DNA from: Oscillospiraceae bacterium
Lineage (GTDB): Bacteria; Bacillota; Clostridia; Oscillospirales; Oscillospiraceae
Reading direction: 5' to 3'
Length of the DNA stretch: 44,151 nt
NCBI GenBank assembly: GCA_031266955.1
Contig: JAISAA010000263.1
Coordinates: forward strand, 1 to 44,151
Part shown: positions 3,935 through 41,543 of the stretch, one piece after another
How the letters are laid out: every line of letters starts with the position of its first letter
How positions within the stretch are numbered: the first letter of the stretch is position 1
Position numbers and translations under genes: made by a program
The notes under the pieces: generated by a model
What the model saw: only the letters and a program-made list of their open reading frames with translations
What the model was told of the DNA's origin: nothing
Database searches by the model: none

Positions 3935-3988
3935 CAATTCTACCGTCCTTTTTATTTTTTGCCCGGCGGCGACCGCCGGTACGCTTAC

Positions 3989-4103: not shown

Positions 4104-4144
4104 GGCTTTACTGTTATTGGTAATGGGAAGGAGTGTATGTTTTC

Positions 4145-6822: not shown

Positions 6823-6836
6823 AAGCTTAGACCCTT

Positions 6837-6932
6837 GGAATTCTAAAGAGAATTCCGAAAAAAATTAAAAATTCCGAAACGGCGCGCCGTTTCGTGCGCT
6901 TCCTTAATTTGAACACAAATAAGGAAGCGCAC
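6837..6932 (+). promoter_or_regulatory. Three consecutive perfect hairpins in the ~230-nt 5' leader
   Basis: Hairpin A: GGAATTC-TAAAGA-GAATTCC (6837-6856). Hairpin B: the 20-nt perfect palindrome CGAAACGGCGCGCCGTTTCG (6875-6894). Hairpin C: GTGCGCTTCCTTA, 13-nt loop, TAAGGAAGCGCAC (6894-6932, 13-bp stem). AATTCCGAAA occurs twice (6851-6860, 6871-6880). None is followed by a canonical T-run; only TTTT at 6939-6942. Confidence 0.5.
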
Positions 6933-7052
6933 GAAGGATTTTCAGCCGCTGTTTGAGCGCGCGGGCGGCGGAGCCCGGCGTCGGGATTTGGATCCGGACG
7001 GTCAAAGCGGACAAGATCAAAGCGAACAAAATGGAGGCATAGGTGTAAAGAG

Positions 7053-8771: not shown

Positions 8772-8802
8772 TACCGCACATAAACAGGGGGGATACTTGG
8801 TT

Positions 8803-8928
8803 ATGAAGAATACACTGAAATACCTGAAAAGGCTTGTCAGCGCGGCGGCGCTGAAACGCGCGATAGCGGCGCTGCTCGTGGCGCTGACGCTGATGCAGAA
8901 CGGCGCCTCAATACTGCCCGCGCTTGCC
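8803..8928 (+). other. Signal peptide of the giant protein
   Basis: MKNTLKYLKRLVSAAALKRAIAALLVALTLMQNGASILPALA|DTGEE: a basic n-region, a hydrophobic core and an A-L-A cleavage-type site ending at nt 8928. Confidence 0.7.
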
Positions 8929-11900
8929 GATACGGGAGAGGAGCAGACACAGCAGGAGCAGGTGACGCAAACACAGGAGCAGCAGCCGGAGCCGGAGCCG
9001 GAGCAATCGCAGCCGGAACCGGAGCCGGAGCAGACCGGCGGACAGACCGGCGAGCAAGCCGGCCCGCCGACGCCCGGCGCGGGGGATAGCCCGCAGGAGC
9101 CGGCGAAAACGCCGGAGAAAACCGGCGAACAGGCCGGCCCTCCCACGCCGGACGGCAAAACGGGGCAAACGGAGCCGCCAAACGAGAGCTTTGAAAACGG
9201 TGGAGTGCTAAGCGAGCTTGAGGACCGGCTTAATTCCGGCGAAAGCCTGAACAGCGAGGCGGGCCCTCAAAGCGACGAGGGCGAGGAGCCCGAAACCGGT
9301 GAGGAGCCCGGAGACGGCGAAGAAGACCCCGGGCTGCCGCCGGACGCGCAGGGCGAGGTGGGCCTGCGGATTGTCCTAAACAGCGATGGGGCGGAGAGCG
9401 AGTTCCTGGACGAGGATCACAGGGTCCGCATGGTAAAGCCCACGGAGGAGGGCACAAATATCAAGACGGCTCGGGCGATCTTGGAGATAGTGCCGCCCAC
9501 GGCGGGAGCTGCAAACAATGTGGTCGTCCATCTGCGTCTCGGCTACGTGGGCCCGGACGGGGAGGACGGCGCCACGTTTAAGCACAGCGACAGCCCCCTT
9601 GACGAGGCGCAGGCCCCCGGCTACGGCGGCGTCTGGGTCAACATTGAAGAGGACAGCGCCAGTACTGAAGCGGCGTGGATAATCCCGACGGAGGAATGCG
9701 CGGGCGTAATAAACCAAACGATAGAGGATGACGGGAAGCTCTGGCATTACGGCTCAGAGGCCGTCATACTGTTTCCGAGCGTGCCGGACACGTATCATTT
9801 TACGGTTCCGCTGGAGTACGGCTTCTACGGCGAGGTGCCGGAGGGTATGCGCTTTTATATGTACGCCTGGGTGGAGTACGAGGGCATAGACGGGAACACA
9901 GACTTGGGCTGGAAGCAGCCCTACAGCGGCCCGTATCAGGAGACGATTTTTTATCTGCTGCCGACAAATATAAAGTGGCAGCCAAAGGTTGACGTCGTAA
10001 AGCCGGTAGTCGTCGCATGGGACAGGTACAACTATGACGTGTTCGACGTCAAGGTGAATAACAACTCGATAAAGCCCTCGGCTGTTATCAACGACACAAA
10101 GCTTTTCTTCACAGTCCCGCCCGCCTTCTCAAACCAGAAGGACGCGAACGGCGGCGAGGTGGACCCGGATATCCGCCGCTGGAAATACAACGGCGACGAC
10201 CCGCCCGTCGAGGTGACGAACTACGACACCGGTATCTCCAACGACCCGTACATAGGCGTGATCGACAAGGGCGGCCTGCTGATCTACGACGTCACGGATA
10301 TAGACCCGGAGCTGCTGGAGGGCGAGGCGTGGGACAGGCTCATGCCGACGCTGACGGGCATCCCCTACTACGTGACGGGCGACGGCCAGATATACTTCAA
10401 TATGGGCAATACGCTGCTGCCCGATCCCGCTAACGTCGAGATTGCCGACGTCGATAATCAATACGGCGGCTACAGGCAGCAATTTGAAGACCTCGACGGC
10501 CGCGCCGAGAGAAAATACCGTATATACATCCCGATAGCCAACCTGTTCAACTACCGCCCGGCGGATATCATCACCGGCGTGCAGGCGACAATATTTTTCG
10601 GGCACGAGATAAAAGAGCAGACCGGCTGGACAAAGGAAGACCTCGCCAAGGTCTCGCACGTGTACCCGAAGCACGAAATGACGTTGAGAAAGTACACGGA
10701 CACCCCCACAAATTACCTGTACGAGGACGCGTCATTTTACATCTCGGACGTGACGAACGTCGAGCAGGACGAGGGGAACTACACCCCGGCAAAGGTGCGC
10801 CTGACGGACGCGATACCGGACGGCTTTATGCTGGAGTACATCGAGTACATAGTTCCCGACGACGATTACTACGCCCCTGAAAACTGGCTGGGCGAGGACG
10901 GACGCTACAGCTATTATCTGGTGGACGACGGCGACCCGGATAAAAACGAGTTCAATATCACCGTCAACAATCCGGACGATGCCGAAAGAATTGAAGTGGA
11001 GGCCGACGTATACCCCGCGCTGGAGTACAGGCGGAACATCTGGAGTGAGGTTCTTGACCCCGAGACACATGACCCGGTGCTCGATCCCGAGACGAACGAG
11101 CCGCTTCTGGAGCTCACCGGCACGGAATGGGTTCCGTTTTACGCCAACGACGAGGCTGTAAATGCGTTGACCTCGGAGACGGCGAAGACGCAGGCCCTGT
11201 TCGGTGAATATACCGTCGAAGACGATAAGCGCGTGTACCGCATACCCGTGCCGGCGGAGTTCAACAAGGATCTGCAAAAGGGCGTGGAGCCGATCGACGT
11301 CGTACAGCCGCCGTCGCCGCCGCTTGAGCCGCACGAGCTCCGCATAAATTTCAAGGAGTATTTCGACATCGCCTACACGTTCCCCGGCACGTTCAGGCTG
11401 GCCGGCAATATCAACAAGACGGGCGTGATCGAGAATACGGTCAGGCTAAACCGCGATTACCGGCACGAGGTAACAAAGCAGGACGATTACACGAAGACTT
11501 GGCGCCCCACCTATGTGGAAAACCCGCGTGACGTGGCGAACGGCGTCCTAAAAGGGATGATCGGCGAGCTGCCGCCCGTGACGGCGACGGCCCGCATCAC
11601 AGTGCCCGACCCGCTACCCGTGCTGACGATGAAAGCGTTCGCGGACGATGTGTCGCCCGGCAGTGGTGAGGTGAGCGAATGGGTCTACGGAGACGCGTTG
11701 CAGGCGATACAGCACGCCCCCGTCGGCTACAGGGCGGACATTACGATGAGCAACGCAAGCTCGATGCGCGACGTTGACGCTGAGCTGACGATCCCGTACA
11801 ACGGGGGCGTCAACGGCGACCGCGCCAGCTTCCGCTTCTCAGATTTCTACGTCAGCCCGCAGACGGTCGAGGTGGCCGGCGTCACCTCAATAAAATTCTA

Positions 11901-14900
11901 CAGCGACGAGTTTTCCGGCGATATGGATGGCATACTCCCCGCCGTGCCGTATCTGCGCGACGAGGTGCGCGTCTATCCGCCCGAAATTGAGGGCGGCGAA
12001 TACACCACGGAGATATTCCACTACCCCGACCCGTCCCGGGCGGAATGGGCGGACGCCGACGACCATACTAAGGGCAGAGTGCCGCCGGAGGAAGTGACGG
12101 GCCAGCCGAGCGGGACCGAGTTCACCGCGTGGCGTATAGCGGCAAACCCGGTATCTGCGGAGGAATATAAGTACAAAATATTCGCGGAGTTCGACAACGC
12201 CGGCGGCCTCATTATATATATGAGCGACGCGGCGGCCCCGGCGGGCTTGGATGAAAATGAGCTGACAGGCGACTTTTCCGTTGACCCCAGCTACAACGTC
12301 GGCGACCCCTCCAAGTCAAACAGGCTGCTGCGCTGGGCGTACAAGGTCCCGAAAATCTCCCTGCACCTGTTTGAGATACCCGGCGGCACAGCCGCAAACA
12401 CCATATTCGTCCAGATGAACGCGCGCGGAAGCTCCCAGGCCTTAAACGCTGAAAATAATGACGAACGGGTCACGGAGTACGGCATCGCCGCCCCCGGCAC
12501 GTACATTTCGCAGGGCACGCTGTCCGCGAAAATACCGACCGGCTATCAGACGCGTAAACCGCTCACCCGCAGCGATACCGCGCGGATACAAATTGCCCCC
12601 GCCACGCTCTGGACGGAGGCAAAGGTGCTGTGGCCTGAGCGGAGCGATACGCCGGCGGATACGAAAGCCGTAGCCTACGGCACGCCGGTGTGGTTCCGTT
12701 ACCGCGCGGGCAATATATCCCAAAACCCGTTTGAGCCGGCGTGGCTGACTATGACGCTGCCGCTTGTGACGGCGGACGCAAACAACCGGATGCGCGGCTT
12801 TCAGGCGGACGAGCTCGAGATTTCAAACGCGCTGTGGTCGCGGCTTAGGGCAAGCTCGTCGAAAAAAAGCCTGCATTCGATAACCTTCGTCAGCGCGGAG
12901 GACCCGGAGGTCACGTTCACGCTTGACCTGGAGAAAGAGGACAATCAGCAATACTATAACTACGACGAAATAGAAACCGACGATAGCATCGCAATGACCG
13001 TCACAAAAGAGCAGTGGAAGGCGTTCATAGCATCGGAATACACAGCCGAGAACGAAGCCCTGTCGCTGGGTCTGTCCCCCGAGACCATAGCGGCGCTGGC
13101 GGAAAGCTTCCGCCTCGGGCAGGTGCGCCTCGACTTCTACGACTACCCGCGTGACGTAGACGGCGAGAAAGACAGGAAGAAGGTGGAGCCGACAGTCGCA
13201 TACTGCGACGAGGTGTACATTAAAGGCGCCGTGAATCACTATTTCACAGCGCAGCAGCCCGGCGTAACAAGCGTGGTGTGGGACGGCGACAACATTACGG
13301 CGCCGGTCAGCGATTCGGCAAGGGTGACGACGACGCCGTTCACAATAGGCGCGCAGGCGTACACGTTCAGGAACGGAAAGGACGCCGTACTGAAAACCGC
13401 CGACCAAGCGCCGTTCAACGACCCGGGCAGCGCCCCGTACATTTTCCGTCTGACAAACAGCAGCGTCAGCGGCGTCTGGGACTCAGCCGTCGAAATAACG
13501 CTGCCGCTTATCACCACCGGCAGCGCCGCCGGCAGGGGCTTTCAGGCCGAGGCGGTGACGCTGACGGAAGAATTCTTCCGCGACGCGGACATAGCGTGCG
13601 TCCGGCTGACGGGAACGGGCGGGACGGAAACGGACGAGTACGGCAAACCGATCACCGAATACGTCATAGAGGCGGCGGCTATAGAGGCCGGGATGAGCGG
13701 GGAGATTTACATCATAACCGAGGACGCTGAAGGCTGGCAAAAATATGTCGGCAAGCTGTTAAAGGTGACGGTGGAGCTCAACAGCTTTAAGGAGCAAGTG
13801 ACTTTCGCGACGAGTTACACCCCGGCGGAGCCGGGTGATCCGGAGGATCCGGAAGACGAGGGCACACCGGCGGACTACGGAACCTATTTCGACCACCACA
13901 TCCGCGTGGACGGTCACATCGACGCCTACGAATATTCCGCGGCGGCCAAAAACTTTGTCGCGAACGTCGTCTGGCGCGTGCGGGACTTCGCGGCGGAGCA
14001 GAGGGCAAACGCGCAATACGAGGTGACGCCCGCCAACCCCATTTCGGTGGCCTACGCCTGGGCGAAAGAAGACGACGAGGGGAACGATATGCCCTACGCG
14101 GACGTTTTTTACGATGAGAACGAAGGCGACGGCTACGGCATACATAATGACACCGCCGTGTATCTGGAGCAGGACAAAGAAGAAGGCTCCCCGGCCTACG
14201 TGTTCGAGCTCAACAACGACTCCGCGAGCTGGCTGTGGGAATCCGCGATACATATCGAGCTTCCGGTGAACACCTACGGCAGCGCGGTAAACAAGGGCTT
14301 CCGGGCGGAGTATATAAAATTCACTGCGGAATTCCTGCGCCACGCCGTCATAGCCGGCGGCGAAAACGGCGTCATAAAGCTGACGGACTCCGAGGGGAAA
14401 ATATACGAGATACCGGTCTCCGAGCTGGACCTGCCGGCCAATCACGCGACGATCAAGCAAAATGACAGCTCCGCCGCATACACGGAATATAAACTCTCTT
14501 TGACGGGCCTCAAGGCGACGGACGGCGAGGACTTCGGGCTTTTGCGCTTCATAGACGTCGAGCTGTCGGACTATAAGGGCGAAGCGAAGCACGGCGAGGA
14601 CGGCGAGGGCGCCAACATCATAGTCGGCGGCCTGTTCGACGCGACGCATTACTTCGGGGAACCGCTCTATCCGGCTAATTGGAGCCATGAGTTCCCGGCG
14701 GTGATCACCTGGACGTCGAGCGGCGTGAGCATACCGCGCACCTACAATACGGCGAAATTCTCCGTGACCGATTTCAATTTGCAAGTCAGGGCTTTCGCGT
14801 GGGGCGAGGACTACGCTACGCTCCAAGCTATGTTCAACGACTCAAACGAGCATAACGCGACCGCGAAGGACGGCACGCGCGCGCCGGTATCCGGTGACCC

Positions 14901-17900
14901 GACAGATTTGCAGGGAACAAGGTCAGCGGACAACAAAGCGGCGACGGCGTATTTAGAGAAGACCCATCCCGCCGAGAACGCCGGAGCTGAAAACTATCCC
15001 GGCAATCCGGTGTACGTCTACGAATTCAGCAACGCGTCCAAAAGCGCGGCGTGGGCCTCCACGATAAAAATCGACCTGCCCATCAGAAGCGGCGCCGACG
15101 CCGTCGAGGATAAAGACCCCGAAAACAAAGTGGCCCTGCCCAACACCAGCATCGACGTCGGCGACGAGGGCCGGGGCTTTATAGCGGAGGAGCTGACGCT
15201 CACAAACGAGTTCTTACGCTCCCTCGTCCCGCCCGACGTCAATGAGGCGAATCTGCTGAAAGGCATAACGTCGATAAAGCTGTTCGACGCCGACGAGGAA
15301 ATATCGCCGGTAACGGTAAGCTTAGCGTCGGTGAGCATTGAGGAGGACGGCGGCGACCTCGTAATAAAAATATCCGATCACCAGACAATTAAAACGCTGA
15401 AAACCGTAGAGATAAAGATCAACGGCTTCAAGGGCGGCGTCACATTCCGCAACAAGCTTGATTTGGGCGAGAAAGAGCAGGACGCCGAGGACGACGAGTT
15501 TATTTTCGGCGCGAACATCTATATCCGCGGCTACGCTGACGCCTACACGCTGACAAAAACGCCGTTCAAGCCTGAGCTCCGGAATACCTACAACAACGCG
15601 CAGATCGTTCAGAATAGAGCGCCGGAAACATTCTTCGAGCTCCAAAGCCACGTCGATTGGAAGGACGACACCTACAAAGCAGGCGGCGCGGACGACGCCT
15701 GGTTTGACTGCGTACCGGCGGACCTGACCGTAGAGGCCTTCGCGTGGAACAAGGACGGCGACAAGCTGGGCGAAAGCGATTACGATGAGTTTTTGAAAAA
15801 GGCGACGAACAACGCCAAAGCCTTTTATAAAGAAACGCCCTCCGCCTACGTCTACCGTTTCAGCATAGCCGGCAACAGCGGCATATGGGACACGACGGCC
15901 ACGATAGAGCTGCCGGCGACCGTCGCCGCGGCAACCTCACCCGCCGATCCCAAGCTGAACACCGGCCGGGGCTTCGTGACGGAAAGCATCGTGTTCACAA
16001 AAGAATATCTGCAAGCCACGGCGCACGCGTTGCCCAACAACACGTCGGCGTTCTCGCTGGGTAAGGCGGCGATAAAAGCCGTGACGCTTACCGACACGAA
16101 CGGCAAAAGCTATGCAATACCGCTGGAGCCGGACGATATTGATATAAACCAAGACTGGGTGATAGTGGTCGCCGATTTGCGCACGGATCAGGAAACGGCT
16201 GATATTTTCGCGGACTTCGCAACGCTGAAAACAGTCGTCGTGGAGCTTGAAAGCTTCAACGGTCTTGTCCAAAAAACCGATAACGCGAACATCGTGATCC
16301 ATGGCGGGTTTGACGACTTCGCCAACTATCCGGGCATTGATAACAGCCTCACCGTCTCCGCGAACGGCGACCGCTTCACGACGACGGTGCTCTGGGTACC
16401 GCGGGGCGAGCGCACAGACCCGACGCTCGCTTGGTGGCAGAGGATCGACGGCTGGAAAGCGCACCCGATCACAGTCAGTAGAAATCAGGAACAAACGACA
16501 TTGCAGCGAAACTGGGTCTTCACCCGCTACCTGAAACGCGTGGACGCCAGCGCGTACTTCGCCGTGCCCCGCCCGAACCTCGTCGTGAAGACGACGGCGC
16601 AGAGCGACGAGCGTCTGCCTAATGTGGAAGAGGAAGTCCAAGACCCGCCGCTCCCGGACGACGCTGAGCAGTTCTATTCGCTCGTGGACGTGCCGATCTA
16701 CAGCGGCGGCCAGTTCCGCTACCGGATGACAAACGTCGGAATATCCGGAGACAGCGAGACGGCAAACCTCGTCAGTATGATGGACGACCCGTATGTGTCG
16801 CCCTCCGGCGCCCCGGCGCCGGCCAACGGCGACACGGAATTTTTGATGACGATCGCCGTGCCGGTGAACAAGGACGACGCCTTGCAAAATCCGAATATGG
16901 GCTTCCGCATGAACTACGCCGTCATAACCTCCGGCCTGCTGGAGGCGGCGACGCTGTCAAAGGTCGTGTTCAAAAACAGCGCCGGCGAGACGTATGAACG
17001 CGTAATAACAGCGGAGGAAAACGAAAACGATGCCGAGCTCGTGATCCCGATAACGGAATGGGAGGAAAACTGGGCTGAGCTTGACGAGCACAGAGCCGGC
17101 GAAAAAGCGGCGTACCCGAACGAGATAATCATCTATTTCACGCGCTTTGAGCGCGACGTGTTCACGATAGACGAAGCCGATTTTTTGATCCACTGCGACA
17201 CCGATCCGGAATGGGAAACGCAGGACGAAAAAGGCGTGATCGACGACGGAACCGAGCGCGTGATAAACACATATTACGACCACGTCAGCACGGCGTTGTG
17301 GTACAACCGCTACCTCGCGTGGAAGCAGGGCAAGGTCCCGAACGACGCCGCCTACGTAAGAAGCACCGGCGCCGCCATAACGACAAGCGCGGCGAATATC
17401 TACGTTTTCCCGGCGATACCGTCTCTGGCGCAGCTGGCGTATGACGCAGACACGGCGGATCCGGGACGCCCGTTCTACGATTCCGAGGAAACGGTGACGT
17501 ACCGCGAGACCCAGTCCGGCTACTGGGTGCAGCTCTACAACCCCTCGCCCAGCATATCGACGAAATCCAAGGCGACGATAACAATACCCCACGAGGGCGA
17601 GAAAACCAACGACCCGAGAGGCTGGGGCTTCATCACGGAATCGGTGGACTTCAACGAGGCGCTTATGCGCAGCCTCACGGGCCGCGAAACGAATTTGTCG
17701 AAAAACGACGCCGACGGCACAAGGATCAGCGCCATTTACCTCTACGAATACGAAAATGACGAAACGCCGAAGCAGACGATAATCGGCGGCGATCCGGATG
17801 ATCCGCGCTATCTGGCGGCTCTTGATACCGCGGAAGCTTTTACGCTGCTGGCGGCGGACTACTGGGAAGACCCGGCTGATCCGTACACCCTCGGCAAAAT

Positions 17901-20900
17901 AGTAGTGGAATTCGGCGAATTCGACGGCTACGAAAAGCTGCCCTGGAATTGGGACTATGAGGAGCACTACGACTATCTGTGGCCGCACACCGACAAACAC
18001 GATAGCCTAAGCGACGAGGCCTACTATGCCACCGCCGACGAAGCGTCCTCGCTTATCTACATCAACGGACATACGGAATGGTACTCCACCTACGCTGCGG
18101 AAAATTACAAGGTGCCGGTGTTGTATGATCGTTGGAACTATACCGGCGGGAGTATTGAAGAAACAGAATGGCGGCTCGACAGCGAGGAATTCCAGTGGGT
18201 GCACAAGGATCTGCTCATTTCCACCTCCCGCTGGGAAAACAAAGACCTCAGCACGGCTGTGAACAACTATCAAAACACAAATCAGCAATATGTGACCGGG
18301 ACTACGCTGATAAACTACCAAGCGCAGGACGGGATATCGACAGACCGCGCGGCGCTGTACGTCCCCTACGGCAACGCCGTAGTGTCGGCCTACTCGTTCT
18401 ATGAGCACGCCGATTCGCCGGGGATGAAATACCCGACGCCGGAGGAAGTGTCCAGCCCGTCGGGCGCGGCGCGAGAAGTCGGCTACGATGACAAAGACGT
18501 AACGACGGCCTTTGAGTCAAACGCGGGCTACAAGTTCGTACTGGGCAATGAGCCCAACGGCCAGATGTACAATATGAACTACGCCCTGCGCACGGACGAT
18601 ATAGATATAACGGGCCGTGATTTTGACGTGCCCGATTCGCTGTTCCAGAACACTGAAATAGGCGTTGCCTACAACTTTTTCAATAACATGGGCTTTGATG
18701 ACTACAATGGTATATCGGTCCCGACACACACCGGCTTCACCTATTTCTACGGCGCCAACAGCCCGCTGCTGAACAACCCCGTCGTGCGTGCCGGCGGCTG
18801 GTACGAAATCAGCCAAAGAGTCCCGCACGGGGGAACAGGCGGATGGCACAGAGGACTTAATCTGTATCCGTTGCTGGCGGCATATTACAGCTATGACGTA
18901 CCGCTGTTCAACAACGGGCCGGCCTACGGCGGCAACGGCGGCGCCGGCAGCGACGGCGAGGGCGGCACAAACGTCGGGTATAATTACCCCGCGGCGCCTA
19001 ATTATAATTATCTGCTGTCAAACGCACAACAAATCAAGCAGCCGCTGCCCGGAGAGACCAAGGCCGGCAACACGTACAATATGGGCAACGACCCCAACAA
19101 GCGCTACTCCTTCACGGGCAGCAAATTCTACAACGCCTATTTCGATATCGACGTCCCGGTCTACGGCCCCGACAACGCGGCGCCGGACTTGAGAAACAAG
19201 GGCTTTGTGGTAACGAGCGTAGAAATAAGCTCTGAATTGATAGAAATGCTGCTGGAAAACACGGACAAAACAAACGTCGATGAATTGTTTGACAGCCTCG
19301 TCATATACGGCAACAGGGGAGTGACGGCGGGCGCGGGCGTGAGCTCCACAGTGACGCTGACCGGGGAGGAGCTCGCCGCTTATTATGACGACACCGCGGA
19401 ATCGATCACGCTCCCGCGCGAAGCGTGGTTCAACGCTTCGACCGCAGAGGAGAACGCCGACCTCGAATACGCGGCCCGCTTTGAGCTGAAGATCAAAGAA
19501 TTTCCGCAGGAAATTTCTCGCGATGAGAACTGCGCGATCTACGTCTACGGCTATTCCACCCGCTACGAGAAGCCCATGGACGCCGTGGGTACGTGGCGTC
19601 AGGATTCCGCGCCTTACGCGGATAACGGCGATTTTTATGAGAAAATCGATGACACCTACAGCTATTCGCACAACCCGTACCATAAGATAATATCGAACGG
19701 CGCATACTATTACTGGCACCTGAACGGCAGGGAGTACTTAGCCGATGAAGACCTGATAAGCGCCGCGAAAAACGGTGACGGTAACAGCTACGTCTACCCG
19801 AAAGCCGAGACCTGGACAAACGACGCGCGGGACTGGGCCCGCATCCAAATCGCGCCGCAAAATCTCCGCGCGAGCGCTTTCGCGATGAAACCTAATACGA
19901 CGGCTCCAACGCAGGAAAAGCACGACGTCGTAGAGGTCCAGTTCAGCGAATCCGGCGGCTACCGCTTCCGGCTGAGCAACAACAGCATAAGCAAGGCGAT
20001 AGACGCCTATGTGACGCTGACGATGCCTCTGACCGCCCTCAACGACGCCGACGCCGCAAAGCGCGACCAAGGCTTCATAACGGACAAGCTCACGCTGACA
20101 AAGGCGCTCTTTGAAAAGGCCGCCCCGGACGAAATAACATTTACGAACAGCGCCGGAGAGTCGCTGACCGTGCAAATTTCGGATTTTACCGGTAAGACCT
20201 TTGCGGAGTTTGACGAAAACGTTGCGGACAGCGGCGCCGGCTACGACGGCGCCGGCAATCTGATAATAACGATGAAATGGATCATCGCGAATTCGGCGAT
20301 GACGGGCGACGGCCACCTTCTGAACGACGAAGACGGCGTCGGCACGGGCGAAATCGACTACGAACAGGTTTACGAACGCGACGGCCACCCGCTGAAAACA
20401 GTCGCCCTGCACATCCCCACCGTCGTTGCGAATTTGCCGTTTGCGGACCCGCAGACTGACCATGTCAACGGCGTAGACGTCCTGATAGACGGCAAGGCGG
20501 AGCGCTACGGCGACAACACAGCCTCCGTCGGCGGCTACGCCTATCAGCAAAAAGACCCGATCGAGGCGCAGGGAAGCGGGATCGACCTCAACGCCAACCT
20601 CCACGTCAAGCAGCCCAAGCCGCGCGTGGACGTGATCGCGAGCGAGACGTACGGCGCCATAGACGTGAATTATGCGAAAAACCCATATACCAAGAGCGAT
20701 ATCGGCAAGGCCGGCTCCGGCGGCGTGACCTCAGACACGGACGCGGCCAACGAAACGCCGGTGACGCTCGGGCGGTACAACAACCACGCGGCGAGCTTCG
20801 ACGTCGTTCTGGCGAATATCGGCGAGGTGAGCGCCGGCAACAGCAAAACGGTGATCGATTTACCCATGTTCGGCATAGACGGCGACGGCGTAGCCGGCAA

Positions 20901-23900
20901 GGACTACACCGGCTTCCACACGGAAAGCATAACGCTCTCAAAATCACTGCTCAAATACACAGGCTTCCAAACCCTGAGCCTGTGGGATTACGACACTTGG
21001 AATACGGGAGAAAACCCGCCCGCCGACATCGTCATAACGCGCGCCGCTCTGCAAGCTTGGCTTGTGAGTGAAAGCATAGCTGCAAACGAAGACGAGGCGA
21101 AAAAAATTCTTGCCGGCGACGACGGGACTGCCGGCGTCACGCTGACAAACGCGGACTGGGAATACTTCCGCACGGAACCCGGCCACGACCCGATAGCAAA
21201 CCTCGCGCACGCCACGATGACGTCGCAAAAGATCGAAGCGATAAACCTCGACGGGCAGACGTTTACGGAATGGTACTCAGGTCGCGGCGGCTCGGTGCCC
21301 CTCGAGGCTATGGGCTTCCCCGACAACGTCGGGAATTCATATCCGGCGGCGGGCGGCAGGCTGCACGACCAAAACGCCCCGGACAACTGGGCCTACGCCG
21401 AGAACGACGCCGGCCTGACCTTCACCGGCTACAACGACCGTTACGACACAAACCTCGCGGCGTCGGCGACGCTCTACCCGCTGTATCTGGATAAAACCGC
21501 CCTGTACAGCGCGGCGATAAACGTACCGTCCCCGGGCCCGCAGGTAAAGCAGTACGCGCAGTACGGCGTAAAGCGCGGCAACATCAGCGCGAACGCCTCG
21601 GCGGCGACGGCGCTGGCGATACCCTATGACCGCTACGGGCAATACCACTACGCCATAGGCAACGGCGACACTGACGTAAATAATATCCGCAACGGCTATG
21701 TGGATATAGCCTTCAACGCCGTCACGAACCCCGCCCGCGGGGACTCCACCCGCGAGCTGCATATAGACGAGATCGAGCTCGACGGATGGCTGTTCGACAG
21801 CTTCGCCAAAATAGACCGCGTCGTGATCGTGGACAATGACGGCTCGACGGCCGTGATCCGCAAATTCAACGATGGATTTTTCTTCGCGGAAGCCGGCGAC
21901 GCGGGTAACAACGGCATGGTCTTCGATAACAACGAATACGGCGATAACGAATGGGAAAAAGCGGACGCCGCGACGGCGCTTGCGCCAAACACAAAGAACG
22001 ACGGCGGCTTCAAGGTCACGCTTGAAGACCTCGAGACCCAAGGCGTAACGGACCCACAAAATATGCGCATCTGGCTCCACAGCGCCAACATCGTCAACGG
22101 AAACCGTTATAAAGACGCGAGCGCTTACAGAAAGAGCAATGACATAACCACTCCGAAGTTCGTAAAGGACGAAAATCCTTACGCCGACGTCCAATTCGCC
22201 ATCCACGCCGGAGGCCGCCTTGATGTCTGGCCGAAGGAAGGCTACAGGGCCACCGGCTGGTATGTTCAGACACCGTACCAGTCGAGTTATACCTATGCTT
22301 ATCTGAGCGATTCGGGTGAGAAGTACGACGTCAACGCCAACGGCGGCTCAGCCGGGGGCGGCTTCACCATAGCGCGCACGACGGGTATCGCCTCATATAC
22401 TTCGCTGTTCACCTACTCCCACCGGTCGGATATGCGCTTCACCACGATGAACTATCTGGACGAGTTCAAGAACACCAAGAATGCGAACGCGCAGGCAGCG
22501 TTCCTCGTCACGGCGATGAAACTCGATTTGCAGCTCGAAACGGCGCTTCGCGCGTCGGACTCGCTGGCGGAAAACGACGACTTCACAAAGCGCGGCATAA
22601 CCTCGCGGCGCAGCACGTATTTCAATCCGGTGTGGGACGGCGGCTCAACTCAGAACGTACCGGAGCCGTATGATAATGTGAGTGGCAGTATAGTCCAGAA
22701 TAAAGCTTACCCCGCCGTACAGGGTGAGTTTACCGGCGGACGTACTCCGCAAGATGTTTATGCAACTGAATATCATGGTCAGTCCGGCACCAACATCATG
22801 GAAACGACTCCGGAAAGCGACTACGCGGATATGAGCACGCTGACCACCTACACAAAGGACATAGTCAGCTACACCGCCAGCCTGTATCAGGACACCGATT
22901 ACTGGAACCACGCCGAGGCGGAGGCAGAGCTCACGATAGACCTGCCATCAGACTATTTCGACGCGTACTATGTAAAAATAGACCCGAAAGTGCGCCCCCT
23001 CGTCACCGGCGTAGATATCTACTACGCGAACGACGATGGCGGCGATGCGCCGATGAAAAGCTACGGCGCAAATGACTTGACGGAGCTCTGGGGCCGCGAG
23101 CGCGACGCCGACCAATCGACCGAATGGCTGCGCATAGACGCGACGTATAACAATACCAGCGCGTTCAACGAGGATGACGCCTCGCCGAACTCATATTATG
23201 ACGTCGGAGAATGGGACCCGGTCGAGCTCAACAACGAGCCGGACTCGCACCCGTATTACAGAACGCAGCGCTACTATCAGGCGGACATCGACGACGGCGA
23301 GCTGCCGGACGAGATATTGCACACCGCCCGCCGCGTCGTCGTGCGCCTCGCGCTAAACCAGAGCGACGAATACTATAAGAAAGACACGGACAGTCTGCAC
23401 GGAAAGCTTGCAACAGGAGCCTATGATACGTACAATGACACTTTTGAGGAAAAAACCGGAGTCGATCTGACAGTGCCCTATATGACCGGCACAGGCAAAA
23501 CGGAATACTGGAATTTCATAAACACCCAGAATACCGACGGCTTCCCGCGCGACTTCGTCGAGGTCACGGGACGAATGTACCGGATAACCGGAAGCGAAAG
23601 CGCCAAGGCTGACGCCCACGTAAAAGTGCTGCTGGGCGACGACGATAACGACGAAAACCGCATCCTCATCGATCCGACGGGCGAGAACGACTTTAACAAC
23701 AGCGGTAACGCCTACGCTCCGGCGGAGGTGTACAACAGCGGGAACGGCGCGGCGAAATACCGCTCGGAGAGCGGCCTGACCTTCGTATCCCGCAACACGA
23801 ATACTGGGGTCAGCAGGGGAGAGCCTTTCCTGCAATCCTGGCTGCCCAGCCTGCTGTACTACAACAGATATAACGACGGCGCGGGCAGCGGCACTGACGT

Positions 23901-26900
23901 TTTGCACAATGACCGCCAGTGGGGCGACCTCGCCGTCAGCGCCCAGATAAAGGTCTCGACCTTGGGAGCAGATATCGCAAAGACCGTAACGGACGGCGGC
24001 GCGTCAAAAACCGGCCTGACCTTCGGCGGCTACGACAGCTACACGGTGACGCAGACGAACAACAAGACGAACGGCGGCGCCGCCTACGGCGCAACCACGC
24101 CGCCCGCGCCCACAGGCGCCTACCTCGACCGCCTGTATCTGCGTGACTATCTGTGGCGCGCGATCCCGATCAAGAACTACGTCGAAGACGTCTACGAGCG
24201 CGGCTTTTTGCCGACTGTGATAGAGCTCAAGCCTGAAAACTTCAAATATTTCGAGAGCCTGACTCTCTCGCTGGGTAAATACGAACAGAAAACGCCGCCG
24301 CCCGAGACGTGGCCGACCACCTCGGAAAGGCAGGTAAAGCTGCTCGTCCCCACCGACGCGGGCTACGAAGCGGAACTCGGATATGGGCGTTATGAGAATA
24401 ACGAAAGCTCCGGCATCACCGACGAAATATACACAAGCGGCGACCGCATAGTGTTCACACTTGAGGACTTGCAAGAATACATTGAGAACTACGGCGTCAA
24501 CACGACCGATTCGTACTATATCTACCTCGAATACGAGGAAAACGGCGCGGGCTCCCTCTACGACACGACGCCGGGGGATTCCACGGACGTAATTAAGTAC
24601 CTTCGCCCTGAAACCGAGAAAAACCAGTATAAGGGCACGACGATAGTCCTGCCGAAAAGCGTGTACGTGACGGACTTCGTGTTAGAGCTGCGGGACATTC
24701 CGGGCGGCAACGATTTCAGCGCGGAGCTGGAGGGCGTGACGGCGGACGTCAGCCCGAAAGCGGTAGAGGTACACGGGCATTTCTTCACGATAGAAGCCAA
24801 GGGCGGCGCCGTGAACGCGGCCCGCCAGCTCGTCTGGGATTCCGTCTCAGCCAGCGAGAACGACTATTACATAAAAAACACTGAGACCGGTATTACGCCC
24901 AAGCAGGACCCGGCAAAGCCGGTGTACACCGCCGGCAGCTATGGCGTCGGAGCCGCCAATACGCAAACTGAAAACGATCTGTGGACCGGCGGCAGCGCCT
25001 ACAACAACGGCGCGGCGGTCTCGGCTGAAACGACGGCGAAAATATCCGTCAAGGATAAAGCTCTGACGGGCGTCGCGAAGCTTGAAAACAGCTGGGACCG
25101 CCGCAACGAGGCCGAGGCGGGTACCGATAACGACTATGTGCGCTTTTACGACTACGGCGAGGACGGCGTAACGCCGAATGTCCTGTGGCAGTACATCAAC
25201 TTCCAAAACCCGGCGTCGGAGGGCGGCACGGACAACACCGCAGTCAGCCGCGTGGACTTCACCTACAACGCCGACGCGTATTTCCGTATGAAAAACATCT
25301 ACATCGCGGCGGATATAATCGACCCGGTGACCGACCCGCAAAATCCCAGCTCCGAGGTCTTCCACGGCTGGCACGGCGACTGGCGGCCCAGAAGCTTCGA
25401 GATAACCGCGATAGCGAATAACGTAACGTCAAAGGTGAGCATCCCCGACGAAAAATTGATAGACTATTTCAATACGTGGGAGTGGATAGACGGCGTCAAA
25501 TATTACGTGCTCGACGCGGAGGAGCTTTTCACTACGTTCGGCGATGCCGTAGGTCAGGATGGTTTATCGCAGGAGCCCGGCAAGCCCCCGATATTCGGGA
25601 TAACGGGCAGCGATAAATACGGCTTTGACGCGGAGTATATGCCCTTGCGGATCACGACGTTCAGCGGCGCGTTCGAGACGACGCACCTGCTTTCCGAGGG
25701 CATAAAGGATATGTTCCTCCCCGGTACGTATTTCCTGACTGGCGACGGTACGCAGAAAACGGACACCGTCGACGACATAATGGTGCGCGGCGACTACGTA
25801 GACAAGACGGACTACACGGAGGAAATCGAAGAAGCCGGCTACACGTGGGACAACACCACCCCGACGTTCAAAGGCTCGAGAGCGGATAACGACCCGTTCG
25901 ACGCCTTACAGCACAACAAGCAGAACGAATCGCAAAATCAATCGTGGACGGCGAACGCGACGCTTAACACCTGGTACACGACGAAGGAGGAGGTAAAGAA
26001 CAACACAGGCGCCTCCCGCAAGTGGAAGCTGCCCGACGTGGAGGCAAAGGTGCCTCTGGCGCACCGCTACGCCGTGGCAAATTCAAGCTGGACGTGGCGC
26101 GGCGTGACGGAGGACGGCACGGAGGAAATACGCCCGGAGGACGTGGGCGAAAAAGCGCTGAAGCTGAATATGCTCCCCGGCGATAAGATCACCGGAACAT
26201 ATACCGTGCGAAACGCCGGCAAGGAAATGCCGGAAAACGCGACGCACGAGTTCGGCAATATCGCGCTCTACGACCCGGCCTACCTGATGTTCGCCAACGG
26301 CGGCGCGAAGCCCGCCAACGGCACAAACAATGCGGCTGCGCCCGGAGCCGCCAACGCGGAAAACCTGATGCGCGGCCTGGAGGTCACGTCGATAGAAGTT
26401 GACTATTCCGCGTCCGGCCTCGCCCCGGATACGACCGCCGAGACCCTTGACAGGAACACGCGCGTGTTCTACAAAGAGCGCCACAGCAAAGACGACGGCG
26501 CCGTTGACGCGGACTGGATCGAGTTCGCTTACGACAGCGCCGCGCCGGGCTATTCGTATGAGTACGACTCGGCCAAAAAAATCGGCACGTACACGTTCCC
26601 CGCCGCGATGAACGTCAAATTCATCAATATAACGACGACGGGCGAGCTGGGCTTTGTCACAAAAGACACAGCGGAGCAGACAAGCGACCCCGGCGTCGTC
26701 CAAAACGACACGCTGACCGTGACGGTCAACTACGCGCTGGTGGACGACTACGAGGGCGCCCACGGCGGCATTCAGGGCAAGAACTTCCACACGGAGATAA
26801 TAGACGCCCCGGTGCGCCGCCACGACTTCAACCCCGTGGTGATGACGAGCGCGACAGACAGCCCGAACGCCCCGGTCACGAGAGCGAGAACGCGCGCGGA

Positions 26901-29900
26901 CAACACGGAGCTCGACGTCAACGCGAATAACTTAGACGGGCAGCGCCCAGTTACCGGCAGGCCGGCAAAAAATCTGCCGGAGAAAATTTCGCAGAACTAT
27001 GACGCGTTTCAGGTGCTCAAGTTCCTGAACCTCAGCCTTTACTATCAGCCCGGCGAGTTCCGCGGACTGTGGCTCGACGGCGATTGGATAAATGAAACGC
27101 CCGGCTGGTGGACCGCCGCGAATTGGACGGACGCCAACCTGACGGCCAACAGCGCCGGCTACTATGAAAACGACAGCCTGTACGTCGTCAACTACAAGAG
27201 GGTAGGGGCGGCCGCCGCCGGCACGGGAGAAGCGGCGGCAAAGCCCGGCGACACAAGCCCCAACGTCACGTGGAACTGGGGCGGAAACCTCGACGGCAGG
27301 GACGCTTTCATCAAGGTGACGGACATCAAAAACTACACCTATCGCAACAAGGCGGATCTGTCCGTGCGAGTGGCCTTGGACACGAATATCAAGGGCTCGG
27401 GCGTCGGCGCCGTTCCCTACGACGGCTTCCTGCTCTCCGCGTGGCCCGTCGCGGCGTACCCGGCAAATTACGACTTCGACTTCCTGCGAGACGGCGAAAA
27501 AGCAGACGATGACGCGAATGATGATATATACGCCGACTTCCATTCCGCCGGCTGGTACGGAGACGGCAAGGATGCCGTAAGCGGCGAAACCGAATACAAA
27601 TGGGTGGAACGCAAAACCGACGGCGACGGAAGCTATGAGCTGACCCCGATGACGGATGACGAAACTCTCGACGGCAAATACAGGCCGAAGCTCTATTACA
27701 CGACAGACCCGTCCTCGACGCCCGAAAACAGCGTAGTGTGGAAGCAAGTAGCGTTTGACGATATAGACGCCCAGACGCCGCCGGAGGAGGGCTTCGCCGC
27801 CGTGCGCCAGCTCCGCTGGGACTACGGCTCCGTGCCCAGCTACACCTACGTGAGAACGGGCGACGGCACGCCGTCTGTGCCGGAGAAAGAGCCGCAGCTC
27901 ATAAGCGGCCATTACATCGACACCAACAATGATAATGAATACACAGTGCCGGACGACCCGGGGGATTTGCAAGAAACGGACGATATCTGGGTCGCGGAAG
28001 AGCCTTATGACAGTACAAACGAAGACCCGGATTATCCGGCGATTGCGATGTATTCCGATGCGGAAGACGGCCTGCCCGCGCAGCCGACGCAGTACGAAAC
28101 CGTGCCGCTGGCCTTCCCCGACGTATACATCGCCGGCTACGGCTATTGGCGGGACGAAAGCGGCCCCACCGCCGCGGTTTACACCATCGACGGTAACGCC
28201 CGGCCTATCTACACCATCGGCATACTGGGCGACCTCGACCGCTCCACGACGCTAAACGGCGGCTACGCCCTGTCGAGCCAAAACATAGTGCGCGTGACGC
28301 CGGACGTGGAGATAGCCACACACGCCTTCCCCGACCGCGCCAGCGCCGAAAAGAAATTCTTCGGCAACTCCGACGAGATAAAATTCTGGTACCGCCCCGG
28401 CGACGAGCTGTGGTACAAGACAAGCGTGCAGAACCACTATACCGCCTACAATAGGGCGGAAACGGCGGTAAAAAGCGGCACGGGCGTGATACAGGACTTG
28501 GCCGTGTATGAAAAAATACCGGAGTACATCGACGCCGATTTCCTGGACCCGACGAAGCTGGAAGAAGCGGGCCTCACAAAAGACACGGACTTCGGCGTGG
28601 ACGCGGACAACGAAAACCGCGTGATATGGATCACCACGGACGGCGTTAATACCCTGCTCGGCGACGGTTCGGACGACGCGCTGCTCAGCATAAATATGTT
28701 CTACCGCAACCCGGAGAACGATCAGGAGTACAACGAAAAGTTCAACGGCGCGAAAACCTACTCCGCCGCGGAGCTGGCGGGAAGCTACGCCGAGCTGCCT
28801 AAGACGTATATCGATGACACGGAAAAACGGATAGACAGCTCCGAGGAACGCTCCGTCTTCAAGGCCCCCCGCATAAACGTCTATTACATAGAGGACTGGG
28901 ATATTGACGGCGATCAGGTGACGCAAGAGACGACGCAAACACTCAACCTCTCGCAGCTCACCCATCCGACGAACCAGAATTTCACCGGCAACTGGGCCCA
29001 ATATCAGAACAGCAACGGCCACTGGACCGGCCCGTTCATCCTGGAGCACGCTTACAATCCCGTGGGGAATGTAGTATACCCGTCCTCCAACCGGCCCGCC
29101 GGCGTCAGCAAAATAACCTTCGCGGTGGTGGAATTTGACTTCGGGCAGGAGGAGGACGTCTGGCTCAACCCAGTCCTGCCGGACACGACGGCGATCAACG
29201 CCCACAGCCCGGCTGCTTCGGGGGCCGCCGAGCCCTCCGAACCCGCCTACGGACACCTTCACAGCGTCAACGGCCAGAGCCTGAACCCCGGCGACCGCGT
29301 GGAGATACAATACAAAGCCCGCAACAACGGCAAATTGCCGACGGCGAACGACACAACGACGGGCCGCGTGAATTACGCGCCGATGGCCGGCGACCTGACA
29401 CAGCTGGCGTTTCAGGGGAGCTCCTGGCAGCGTGCCAGTGGTGCAAGCTCCTATACCTTGGCGCCTTACAGCGACTACGAGTTGTCCTATGAGCCCCATG
29501 TGACGAATGTCTCAAGCCGCCTGATGGAGGGCGACTACCTCTACCATGAGGCGGGGGTGAGCGGCACGCCCAACAGCGGCACGGCAAAAGAACAGTTCCT
29601 GGGCAAATACGCGCACTGGCTGCCGGCCAGCGACGCGGCCAAAACTCTCAGCCGCGGCTGGATGACGGAGCACTCTTTTTCTGTTGAGAGAAAAATTGGG
29701 ATGAACGTGAGCTGGTTCACTTTTTACTACTACCAATATCACTCCGCCAGCCTTCTGCTCAATTACGGCAAGCGTATCAATAACACTCTCGCGTCCGGTA
29801 ACGCCGACCTCTGGATCGGCACAGACGGCATTTGGGACACCGACCGCCGCTCAGAGAACAATCTGAAAGCGACCAGCACCGACGATATGTACGATATGCG

Positions 29901-32900
29901 GGTTCAGGTGCTGACTCCCCGCACGGAAAAGGTGCAGGGCGCGACGGCGGCCGATATTCGCCCCGTATACGGCTACGTAAAAGTCGGTGATGAATACATC
30001 TGGCAAGCGCTGGAGGACGGCGATATTTCGGCAATGGCGGACGAAGTGAAAACCAGCTACACCGCCGCCCGGCCGCCGGAGGACACGCCGCTGCGCGAGA
30101 ACACCGTATGGGCGGAGAGCCGTATGCACCTGCGCCGCGGCTGGCTTGCCGCGACGTCGGAGCTCCCGTCGGAAAAATTGGAGTACGAACAAAACCTCGA
30201 CCTCAAGCTTACAGCCTACAACTACGGCGACTGGGGCTTTAGCGGAGTTAATTTTGTCGAGGTAATGCCCTTGGGCACACAGCCCCGGTTCGACTCGGAC
30301 GGTCTCCCCGTGGCGGAGATAACGCTGGGCGGCGTGACCTACAACAGCAAGGATGCTCCGGGCGTAATAAAAACAGAGATCATCCAGAGCCCCGCCTATT
30401 ACGACCCGGAGAATAAACAAAGCCACGCCGCGAAGGTGGACCCCGATAATCAATACGTCGCGCCCATTGAGCAGATGGATTATAACGTGCGGCCCTACGC
30501 CGCCGCGCCCTTACACAATGACATCAACATCGGCTACGTCGCCGACGCCGTCCCGTGGGTTGTGAAGGTGACGGTCACGAGCGAGCTTGGCGTGTGGTGG
30601 AACTCCGCCAAGGAAACCGCGTGGGCGGCGGAGGGCAATCCGCTGCAAAGCGGGTGGGCCGGAGACCCGTCGCAGTACACGGCGGTGTTGAAGGCCGCCG
30701 TAGTGGACCTCAATTACAACGAAAAATGGTACGACAAGCTGCTGGCGTACCCCATTTTGGACGGAAATTCAACGGAATATGAGATTTACGACTATGAGTA
30801 CTCATCCACCGGCAGAACCGGCGCGGCGACTAAGCTCAAGGACAAAATCACCGGCGAGACGGCGGGCCGGGGGACGGATCCTGTTCCCGCGACGTATGTT
30901 TTCCGCCTGTATGAGAATCCGTCGGGGAGGCGCAGCTTAGGGTACGCGCAGGATGATGACGTAAAACGCGCGATCGATCAGTCAACAAACAGTCCCCCAA
31001 CCTTTGGGATCGGGTACAACTATTTTTACCATAGCTGGTACCGCGATAGCGCGAAATATTTCGCGAGAGACACAAGCCTCCATACCGATTACGTCAACAA
31101 AGAAATCAAGCCCATAGCCTGGCAAGCGCCGTACATACACGGCGTCAACAAGCACACCGTCCGCGCCTCGGCGGATATGACGGAAAGCTTGCCGGGCTTT
31201 GAGGGCGTCCCCTATTCCGGCAAAAACGCCTATGAAGTGCGCAAGGTGGCGCGCAACGGCGACTACGCCGACGCCAAACACCCGACCATCGGCCTGACGC
31301 CCAGCGTCGGGGCCGACGCGGAGACGGATTACTCGACACAGGTCTCAGAGCCGATCCAGAATTTTGACATTCACCTGAAGGCGGACTCCACCTCCAACAC
31401 GCTGTTTGACCCGGTGTACACCGTCCTGTTCCCGCAGGGCATAGTCCCGATGACGACCCGCACGGTAGGCGACGTACCCCTGTCCAGCGACGGCACGCCC
31501 TACCCGTGGTATCAGCCGGAAGGCACCTACAGCGCAGAAGGCCCCGGCGAGAAAAACGCGACGTGGCTGAACGGCGTATACATAGGCTCCTGGGACGAGG
31601 GTGAAGGCAAATACGTCAAAGACCCCGAAATAGAGGCGGCGATGGCGCTGATCGACCCGGACGGCGAAGGGATGCAAATATTGTGGTCCGTGGGTCTCGA
31701 CAGCGACGAGACGGCGAAAAATCTCGGCGTAACAGTCAACACCGCCGTGGGCGACCGGCAGACGACGGCAGACCCGATAAAATATCTGGACGGTACGCTT
31801 GTCAGCGATGGCTCAATTACGGAGGAATATCTGAAATCGCTGTTTGACGTGCGCGTGGATTGGCTGTACTACGCCGACGGCGACGCTTACGGCGGTACGC
31901 CGGGCGTGCCCATGCGCCGGTATCTGGTGCAGTTTATCCCGAAAGTGCAGCCTTTCAAAGAGGGCTTGCGCATCCCGCAGGGCTCGTCGCTGACGATCTC
32001 AATAAGAACGGCGGCGGCGGCGACGCCCGAAGTGCTTACCCCCGGCGTGGACCCGGACGACCCGCCCCGCGAAAACGTCGCGCTGGTGCAGCGCTGGCAG
32101 GATATTGTCACTTTCCTGACGAGCCGCAGCGACCCGACGAAGCTGCAAGCGGCGCCGGAGTCCGCCTACCCCTCGTCGCAGTTCAAGAGCGCGCTGACAA
32201 AGTACGAGGAGGACGGCGCCATACAGTTAGAGCACTGGACGGCGGACCGCTTCCCGCAGTACAAAAGGCCGGCGGCCTATCTGCCCCAGCGGGCGAGAGA
32301 AGCGCTGAACGGCGAGGACCCGCACGGCATTGCGCCGGGCGGCGAGCTGGTATATATCTTCACGCAGAACCCGAATCCGGAATCTTGGAAGGACGTCGGC
32401 GTTATGCGCACGATGTACGTCAAGGGCGCGGGGCCGCGGCTTGTGCTGGATAAGCGCATCGTGGCGTCCACCCGTTACGACGAGGAAAAGAACGCGGCCG
32501 TGCCGACGCCGGGCACCCCGGATCAGCCGGACGGCAGGGGAGCGCTTCTGGCAAACAATGCCGCCCCGCCGCTGTACTCCTTCGGCGACGAGATATGGTT
32601 CTCACTGGAGGCGTTAAACGACCCGTCCATCAGAAACGAGTCCAACAAAGACCTCGGCGTCCTGACGAATTCCCAGCTGCTGTTTGTAGACCAGCTCCCG
32701 GACTTCCTCAGCTACGCCTACGATTATATAATAGAGATACAAGACCCGGACGATCCGGCTAAGACCAAGCTGCTGACAAGGGATGAGGCCGCCGCCGCCG
32801 GCTGGCAGATCGCGCTTAAGGCCGATATGACGCAGCCTATGCCCTCCACGACCGGCGCGGAGCATATAGTGATGTTCACGGCGCTGACGCCCAGCCGCGT

Positions 32901-41225: not shown

Positions 41226-41435
41226 AAAAATACCCCCTGAATATTATTTTTCGGCGAGACCGGGCGAACGCGCCGTCCCGCGCGGCCCCGCCGTCATACT
41301 TTATGTACAAACCACAAGCCGTATGTGCGCCGCGAAAAAAGTGAAATTGATTTCGAGCAATTCCGAGGAAACGGGCGTAATCTTGCGAAAACGAGCGATT
41401 TTACCCTTCAGCTTAATAAAATTCGGAAAAAACTG

Positions 41436-41464
41436 TTGACAGGGGGCTCTCGCTGTGTTATAAA
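41436..41464 (+). promoter_or_regulatory. SigA-type promoter of the rplM-rpsI operon
   Basis: TTGACA (41436-41441), 17-nt spacer, TGtTATAAA extended -10 (hexamer 41459-41464). About 80 nt of leader precedes the AAGGAGAG RBS and ATG 41544. Confidence 0.65.
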
Positions 41465-41543
41465 TGCAGAGCACATTTCAGGATCGGCATAAGCGCGGGT
41501 CCTCAACACCAATGTTTTTAATATCAATAAGGAGAGTAAGAAA

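Follow-up and report, generated by a model that had tools for sequence, protein, structure and literature searches.

Whether a series of faintly similar segments in a very long bacterial protein forms a true tandem array, and what kind of domain such an array would be made of, is the question raised by a 44,151-nucleotide (nt) stretch of DNA from an Oscillospiraceae bacterium (assembly GCA_031266955.1, contig JAISAA010000263.1, positions 1 to 44,151), which was analysed at its full length and is referred to here as the window. It contains a giant open reading frame (ORF) encoding a protein of 10,596 amino acids (aa), in which an initial annotation had proposed an array of ancient, highly diverged modules, each with a three-part signature. 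We found that the array is real and consists of 13 tandem copies of a predicted all-beta module that matches no known family. On balance, we favour, with somewhat better than even confidence, the view that these are anciently duplicated copies of a previously undescribed domain, a new family of beta-sandwich stalk repeats, carried by a 1.17-MDa, sortase-anchored protein resembling fibrillar adhesins.

The giant protein contains 13 tandem copies of a diverged module

All 17 peptides quoted as examples of the signature were located in a single frame of one ORF, at aa 1548–4350. A self-BLAST of the whole protein returned the identity match only, and chunk-against-chunk BLASTP and phmmer were used instead; the former produced 20 off-diagonal pairs of significant score, all within aa 1260–3816, with a best E-value of 6e-15. 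A profile hidden Markov model (HMM) built from six hand-cut seed modules found further copies at 27, 15, 52 and 5 bits, to be compared with a maximum of 4.8 bits in 50 full-length shuffles, a control that was measured on a later, self-trained model. The decisive control was an HMM that covers the N-terminal half of the module and was trained on 78 copies from other proteins, with no window sequence included. This homologue-only HMM detected 13 in-register copies in the giant protein at 17–75 bits, against a maximum of 0.6 bits in 50 shuffles, starting at aa 931, 1261, 1507, 1738, 1985, 2300, 2585, 2865, 3184, ~3392, 3680, 3932 and 4238. Both the BLASTP pairs and the HMM copies, which score far above the shuffles, bear out the proposed periodicity, and a profile of the C-terminal half is detectable in 10 of the 13 copies. 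The in-frame GF anchors of the signature are separated by 741, 759, 879, 795, 930, 726, 870 and 840 nt, in exact agreement with the spacing first described, and by one gap of 1575 nt; this apparent double gap contains module 9, whose GF lies at nt 18691. The array thus delimited spans aa 931 to ~4568 (nt 11587–22500) and comprises the following copies.

11587..12576 (+), module 1, aa 931-1260: 27.8 bits with the homologue-only HMM; SF in place of GF
12577..13314 (+), module 2, aa 1261-1506: 55.5 bits with the homologue-only HMM
13315..14007 (+), module 3, aa 1507-1737: found with profile HMMs; first structural model
14008..14748 (+), module 4, aa 1738-1984: found with profile HMMs; second structural model
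14749..15693 (+), module 5, aa 1985-2299: found with profile HMMs
15694..16548 (+), module 6, aa 2300-2584: 60.7 bits
16549..17388 (+), module 7, aa 2585-2864: 27-aa insert within Part 1
17389..18345 (+), module 8, aa 2865-3183: 49.3 bits
18346..18933 (+), module 9, aa 3184-3379: 17.4 bits; C-terminal half not detected
18934..19833 (+), module 10, aa ~3380-3679: 24.3 bits; first strand not detected, start approximate
19834..20589 (+), module 11, aa 3680-3931: 74.6 bits
20590..21507 (+), module 12, aa 3932-4237: 63.2 bits
21508..22500 (+), module 13, aa 4238-~4568: 30.0 bits; GF lost, Part 3 reads VVIVDNDGS, end approximate

The array had been proposed to extend over nt 11720–26420 with at least 11, and probably about 17, copies. 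The existence of tandem, diverged modules with a three-part signature was upheld, while the homologue-only HMM sets their number at 13 and the limits had to be redrawn. Past aa 4355, the family profiles gave sub-threshold matches only (aa 4652–4725, −0.2 bits; aa 5122–5167, −3.2 bits), and extension of the array past aa 4568 with family-enriched HMMs of the N- and C-terminal halves also returned nothing above threshold. Window aa 4623–4987 aligns to the segment directly following the last module in two homologues (P0002 and P0018). Because only sub-threshold profile matches lie beyond it, and because this region is collinear with the post-array segment of the homologues, the array ends near aa 4568. 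On visual inspection, strings resembling Parts 1 and 2 can be made out around aa 4700, 5145 and 5800, and are indistinguishable from chance; no other sequence repeats were found at aa 4400–9190.

Identity between neighbouring modules ranges from 15 to 45%, and such low identity between adjacent copies is usual in stalk arrays. Modules 3–6 are mutually closest (25–45% identity), which points to a lineage-specific but old duplication, and modules 1, 12 and 13 resemble modules from other proteins as closely as those next to them in the array. In the nucleotide sequence, nothing is left of the repeat but a 33-nt trace of the GF motif. The module duplications are, therefore, old, and the description of the array as ancient and highly diverged is borne out.

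The module is predicted to form a single all-beta domain

A model of module 4 computed with AlphaFold2 (AF2) from a 62-sequence alignment reached a mean predicted local distance difference test score (pLDDT) of 79, with 120 residues above 90, and a predicted template-modelling score (pTM) of 0.79. It contains 11 strands and two short helices, and a separate AF2 model of module 3, based on nine sequences, shows the same order of elements. In the module 4 model, Part 1 of the signature corresponds to the hairpin of strands 2 and 3 (Y-x-F-x-L-x-N-x-S-x-S ... I-x-L-P). Part 2, which had been described as helix-like, is instead strand 4 (GFRAEYIKF; general form GFxxExxxF) followed by a short helix (AEFLRH; xEFLxx), with the consensus G-F-x-x-E-x-I-x-L-[ST]-x-E-L-L. 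Part 3 is, as anticipated, a strand motif, forming the strand that follows Part 2 (VIKLTD; consensus I-x-I-x-L-x-D-x-x-G).

The suggestion of a composite module is not supported by these models. We infer that the module is one compact all-beta sandwich domain rather than a composite of three elements, because its C-terminal half comprises only four strands, which cannot form a sandwich alone, the two halves co-occur and the pTM is high. The wider family, represented by 160 modules, conserves positions A2, P11, Y48, N54, S58, P70, G83-F84 and L95, which represent the three parts of the signature plus a first-strand motif, [TS]-A-x-L-x-V-x-x-P; the signature is, therefore, a property of the family and extends beyond the window. 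Module length is 190–230 aa in homologues and 196–331 aa in the window copies, which are enlarged by loop inserts.

The initial annotation had recognized no known domain in Parts 2 and 3, and the database searches agree with it. When 62 modules were scanned singly against Pfam, no family was matched by more than one module even at E≤1, and none was found onto which the module would map at full length; the single CBM53 match (E 0.011, 1 of 62 modules) is noise. PDB sequence searches with two module profiles gave nothing meaningful. Foldseek searches with the predicted sandwich models returned no match in the PDB at E≤1e-3 for either module 3 or module 4, and nothing among the BFVD viral models. 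The best PDB matches were generic sandwiches, namely, integrin alpha legs, CBM3a, TasA, VACV D13, VIP36 and SdrD, with template-modelling (TM) scores of at most 0.36.

A small family of giant, anchor-bearing proteins carries the module

An exhaustive profile search (HMMER) of 1.84 billion representative proteins returned 35 matches. Three of them (P0016, P0026 and P0028) are arrays of DUF11 domains, discussed below, leaving 32 true homologues with ~160 domain copies. Word-index searches, one with the module alignment and one with a 1,597-aa stretch, gave no match among 5.8 billion clusters. The true homologues are almost all giant (2,000–7,200 aa), unnamed proteins of metagenomic origin (Logan, ENA and JGI), in which no Pfam domains were found. 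They carry signal peptides and C-terminal anchors composed of PKTGD, LPVMGD or MKTGD, a transmembrane segment and a basic tail. They are also collinear with the window protein, with a head, 3–7 modules beginning at aa ~665–700, a long body and the anchor, and their conserved C-terminal region corresponds to window aa 6,400–9,800, including the SdrD_B repeats. The window protein has the largest array in the family.

Several homologues were called as two consecutive, overlapping giant ORFs (L082, 5020–18264/18236–28264; L084, 123–9317/9314–14911; L085, 2735–16057/16018–18678). These splits probably reflect frameshifts or assembly errors, in which case the true proteins would exceed 9,000 aa and the lengths listed for them. 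The surroundings of the homologues showed no recurrent gene, whether for a sortase or for a partner protein. One homologue is preceded by small HTH_3 and Spo0A_C genes, an S24-type repressor and a phage holin (L082, 588–4575; L083, 733–1454), a possible sign of a mobile or prophage-like setting; no comparable genes were found upstream of the giant gene in the window.

Architecture of the giant protein

The giant protein has a mass of 1.17 MDa, an isoelectric point of 4.4 and only nine cysteines. Its likely true start is the ATG at 8803, with GGGGGGA located 9 nt upstream. Outside the module array, the following features were distinguished.

8797..40587 (+), giant ORF, 10,596 aa, uninterrupted, 31.8 kb
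8797..9396 (+), aa 1-200: signal-peptide-like N-terminus (MKNTLKYLKRL...ALADT; read from sequence), then an acidic linker rich in Pro, Gln and Glu (by composition)
9397..11586 (+), aa 201-930: N-terminal head region
22501..36381 (+), aa 4569-9195: post-array region, free of sequence repeats, Pfam matches and PDB matches
36382..38946 (+), aa 9196-10050: SdrD_B-like (CnaB-type) repeat region
39523..39666 (+), aa 10243-10290: weak, sub-threshold DUF11 match, PGDELEYTVTVVNRD..., 17.7 bits against a cut-off of 24.6
39949..40431 (+), aa 10385-10545: Pro-rich acidic segment of the wall-spanning type (read from sequence)
40459..40584 (+): LPXTG-like sorting signal, MPGTGD plus hydrophobic stretch plus KRGKKK (read from sequence)

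About 90% of the protein has no match to any known family. The Pfam scan gave nothing from aa 1 to ~9600, with matches confined to the last 1,000 residues, where the SdrD_B repeats near the C-terminus reach an E-value of 1.8e-17, and an NCBIfam scan of two pieces covering aa 1–7,500 was also empty. The head has no match in Pfam or in PDB sequences. Its aa ~325–713 are kept in nearly all full-length homologues and aa 401–600 are covered by ~16 of them, making it the best candidate for the functional tip of the protein. In the post-array region of roughly 4,800 aa, a PDB sequence search found nothing meaningful, and four blocks are collinear with homologues (aa 4623–4987, 6420–6616, 6830–7380 and 7680–9195). 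The sorting pentapeptide is the variant MPGTG, which differs from LPXTG in its first residue, and both the hydrophobic segment and the KRGKKK tail are present. No sortase gene was found in the 44,151-nt window.

More than 20 minus-strand ORFs of 150–415 aa lie antisense inside 8797–40587. They go together with the strong purine bias of the giant gene (AT skew +0.2 to +0.29), and in all likelihood they do not code for protein but result from its base composition.

A stalk or a series of binding units

The protein combines several features of the fibrillar-adhesin class: an N-terminal signal-like sequence, 13 tandem modules, SdrD_B repeats and a C-terminal anchoring signal. Fibrillar adhesins are described as combining a stalk, an adhesive domain and an anchor (PMC9210967). 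By analogy, the modules would join head-to-tail into a rigid, acidic and protease-resistant rod, which, along with the remainder of the protein and the SdrD_B repeats at the C-terminus, would hold the conserved head (aa ~300–800) far from the cell wall. We consider this the better supported account of their role: the modules would probably act as rigid spacers that project the head, in a protein with a probable function in adhesion.

Several observations weigh against this view. The modules adjoin the head and so occupy the distal third of the protein, a position that would suit binding modules just as well, and their loops are long and variable, with 19–62 low-confidence residues that could be ligand-binding surfaces and not inert spacers. 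No adhesive domain was identified in the giant protein, including its head. Moreover, the suggested head-to-tail geometry and the single-domain model depend on the pTM, the strand count and the co-occurrence of the two halves.

The alternative that survives best, although we regard it as rather unlikely, takes the modules for ligand-binding units, that is, jelly-roll sandwiches of the carbohydrate-binding module (CBM) or lectin type, whose 13 diverged copies would provide multivalent or multi-specific attachment to plant fibre, protists or host gut surfaces. Besides the long variable loops and the distal position of the array beside the head, it draws on the size of the module (~200 aa), which is bigger than typical stalk Ig domains, on the CBM3a, CBM11, VIP36 and Aap lectin domains among the top Foldseek matches, and on the placement of the host in a termite-gut Oscillospiraceae lineage, where fibre attachment matters (PMC11481507). 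CBM3a and related jelly-roll modules are, like the module, all-beta sandwiches of similar size. However, all the CBM and lectin matches are non-significant (E≥4e-3, TM 0.15–0.36), those to CBM3a (E 8e-3 to 3e-2, TM 0.15–0.36) come with no sequence or Pfam similarity, and none of the 62 modules shares a Pfam match to a CBM or lectin family with another. The conserved residues of the module (Y, F, L, I, P and G) are core-like and do not form a surface patch, and an aromatic platform is not evident. A bolder version, which we hold to be doubtful, would make the module a new family at the fold level, confined to giant anchored proteins (6,000 to >10,000 aa) that form a rare clade in gut Clostridia, each copy binding a different polymer so that the whole would act as a megadalton, multi-specific 'Velcro' for wood fibre or for protist or host surfaces in termite-type guts.

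Relation of the module to DUF11/CLIPPER

The resemblance of Part 1 to DUF11, already pointed out in the initial annotation, was confirmed. DUF11, recently characterized under the name 'CLIPPER', is a CnaA-like domain that occurs in the stalks of fibrillar adhesins and contains a Lys-Asp-Asn isopeptide bond (PDB 9IFR), in which the triad is formed by K715 in strand A, D748 before LP and N806 in a late strand (PMC12617251). The matches P0016, P0026 and P0028 of the exhaustive search are genuine arrays of DUF11, in which Pfam recognizes 21, 15 and 9 copies of the domain, respectively, and they aligned in many stretches only over profile positions ~20–80. A module HMM built from the window alone reaches 70–80 bits (summed) on these arrays, compared with a shuffle maximum of 7.3, and pairs 'gYrFrLgNdSeS...ltIdLP' with 'tYTIsLyNwSsS...lsItLP'. 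In hhalign, module and DUF11 align over 50 columns with 73% probability and an E-value of 3e-5. Because of these HMM scores and the hhalign result, Part 1 is, as far as profile comparison indicates, remotely homologous to the DUF11 B-C hairpin. Some true DUF11 repeats, at aa 146–457 of P0028, show the same N-x-S-x-S turn (YTISLYNWSSSKATNAQLSITLP) as the module, and this hairpin variant is, therefore, not unique to the new family.

Module and DUF11/CLIPPER are, thus, alike in the strand B-C hairpin (aromatic-x-aromatic-x-hydrophobic-x-N ... hydrophobic-x-L-P), with detectable sequence similarity, and in being all-beta sandwiches arranged in tandem in long, secreted and anchored surface proteins. 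They differ in size, with ~200–330 aa, 11 strands and two short helices in the module against ~100–115 aa and 7–9 strands in DUF11/CLIPPER, and Parts 2 and 3, together with the entire C-terminal half of the module, have no counterpart in DUF11. In contrast to the Lys-Asp-Asn triad of DUF11/CLIPPER, the module has no conserved isopeptide Lys at profile positions 1–8 (strand A), and the Asp before LP is partly kept: among 157 modules, the residue before L-P is D in 42, T in 32 and E in 15. Some DUF11 domains likewise lack the triad (PMC12617251). It is plausible to suggest that the hairpin was inherited from the DUF11/CLIPPER (CnaA-like, E-set) lineage, and that a DUF11-like ancestor would have roughly doubled in size and lost the isopeptide triad and, with it, the covalent cross-link.

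The same evidence could be taken to mean that the modules are simply very divergent DUF11/CLIPPER domains (or DUF7507/DUF7619) with a C-terminal extension and nothing new at the family level, a reading that we judge improbable. In addition to the summed HMM scores and the hhalign probability, it can call upon the E-value of 1.6e-12 for P0016 in the exhaustive search, a sub-threshold DUF7619 match in the homologue P0007 and the weak DUF11 match near the C-terminus of the window protein itself. However, the similarity is limited to the ~50 columns of the B-C hairpin, the module is double the size of DUF11, and strand A and the residue before LP diverge from the triad as described. The DUF11 HMM of Pfam has no match at aa 1–9600 of the giant protein nor in the 62 singly scanned modules (E≤1), none of which is recovered at any Pfam threshold, and the CLIPPER structure 9IFR is absent from the top 50 Foldseek matches. 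The failure of these DUF11 features contradicts the notion of a merely divergent DUF11. As for a chance or compositional origin of the periodicity in a long, acidic, low-complexity ORF, for which the strong purine bias of the coding strand (AT skew +0.2 to +0.29) and the missing DNA-level repeats could speak, it is refuted by the 17–75 bits obtained with a window-free model against 0.6 in 50 shuffles, by the presence of the module in 34 other proteins and by its confident AF2 fold.

Host lineage and genomic setting

The ribosomal protein L13 encoded in the window shares 91% identity with its counterpart in the Oscillospiraceae metagenome-assembled genome (MAG) Pcl387_bin43, and MAGs whose names begin with Pcl387 were obtained from lower termites (PMC12887300). 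Judging by this comparison, the host is an uncultured Oscillospiraceae bacterium of the termite-gut type. This MAG, the nearest relative, keeps the polysaccharide deacetylase-L13-S9 block in syntenic order (window 40639–42416; L002 2380–4101). Homology breaks off precisely where the 3' end of the giant gene is reached, and the 2.4 kb upstream of the block in the MAG are unrelated. No relative of the giant gene was present in 80 Oscillospiraceae loci around L13, and none of the giant protein was found in a scan of 185,579 species-representative genomes with an alignment of the window protein and its orthologue P0001. Because synteny stops at its 3' end and neither survey contains a relative, the giant gene is rare and accessory, and it looks like a variable insertion.

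Upstream of the giant gene lie two adjacent, convergent AAA_14/DUF4143 ATPase genes, at 4133–5359 (+) and 5402–6700 (−). The 300-aa protein encoded at 3035–3937 (−) has weak matches to papain-like cysteine proteases (Peptidase_C70, which exceeds its cut-off with 21.6 bits, and C39_2, which stays below its own) and could be a secreted or processing protease. On the other side, the 246-aa product of 42641–43381 (−) matches positions 105–225 of the 266 in the thymidylate synthase profile (E 9.5e-15), and could represent a diverged enzyme of the ThyA or dCMP hydroxymethylase kind. Rfam (gathering score) and tRNA scans of positions 1–44151 gave no hits, not even in the stretch preceding rplM, a likely place for a leader RNA.

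Comparison with other giant surface proteins and implications

Like fibrillar adhesins and MSCRAMM-type Sdr proteins, the giant protein has a signal peptide, many sandwich domains in a long array, repeats of the SdrD_B (CnaB-like) type, a Pro-rich segment of the kind that spans the wall and a sorting signal resembling LPXTG. In contrast to the Sdr proteins, it is ten times larger, has no recognizable A-region or adhesive domain, is ~90% unmatched and carries the MPGTG variant. RCC1-type giant proteins of Oscillospiraceae are also giant, extracellular, found in the same bacterial family and built largely by internal domain amplification (bioRxiv 10.1101/2023.11.21.568195). Those proteins consist of uniform propeller repeats and lack anchors, whereas the window protein has 13 copies of a sandwich module, a mostly non-repetitive body and a putative cell-wall anchor.

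No general principle is changed by these findings, since stalks made of tandem beta-sandwich domains are a familiar feature of anchored adhesins. Nevertheless, a module present in 13 copies is invisible to Pfam, NCBIfam and the PDB, and this small family deserves a database entry, with which giant adhesin-like proteins would no longer be annotated as featureless 'hypothetical proteins'. The module may also illustrate how a stalk domain of the CLIPPER/DUF11 type can double in size and lose its covalent cross-link, and the family would offer a handle on surface attachment in uncultured, fibre-associated Oscillospiraceae.

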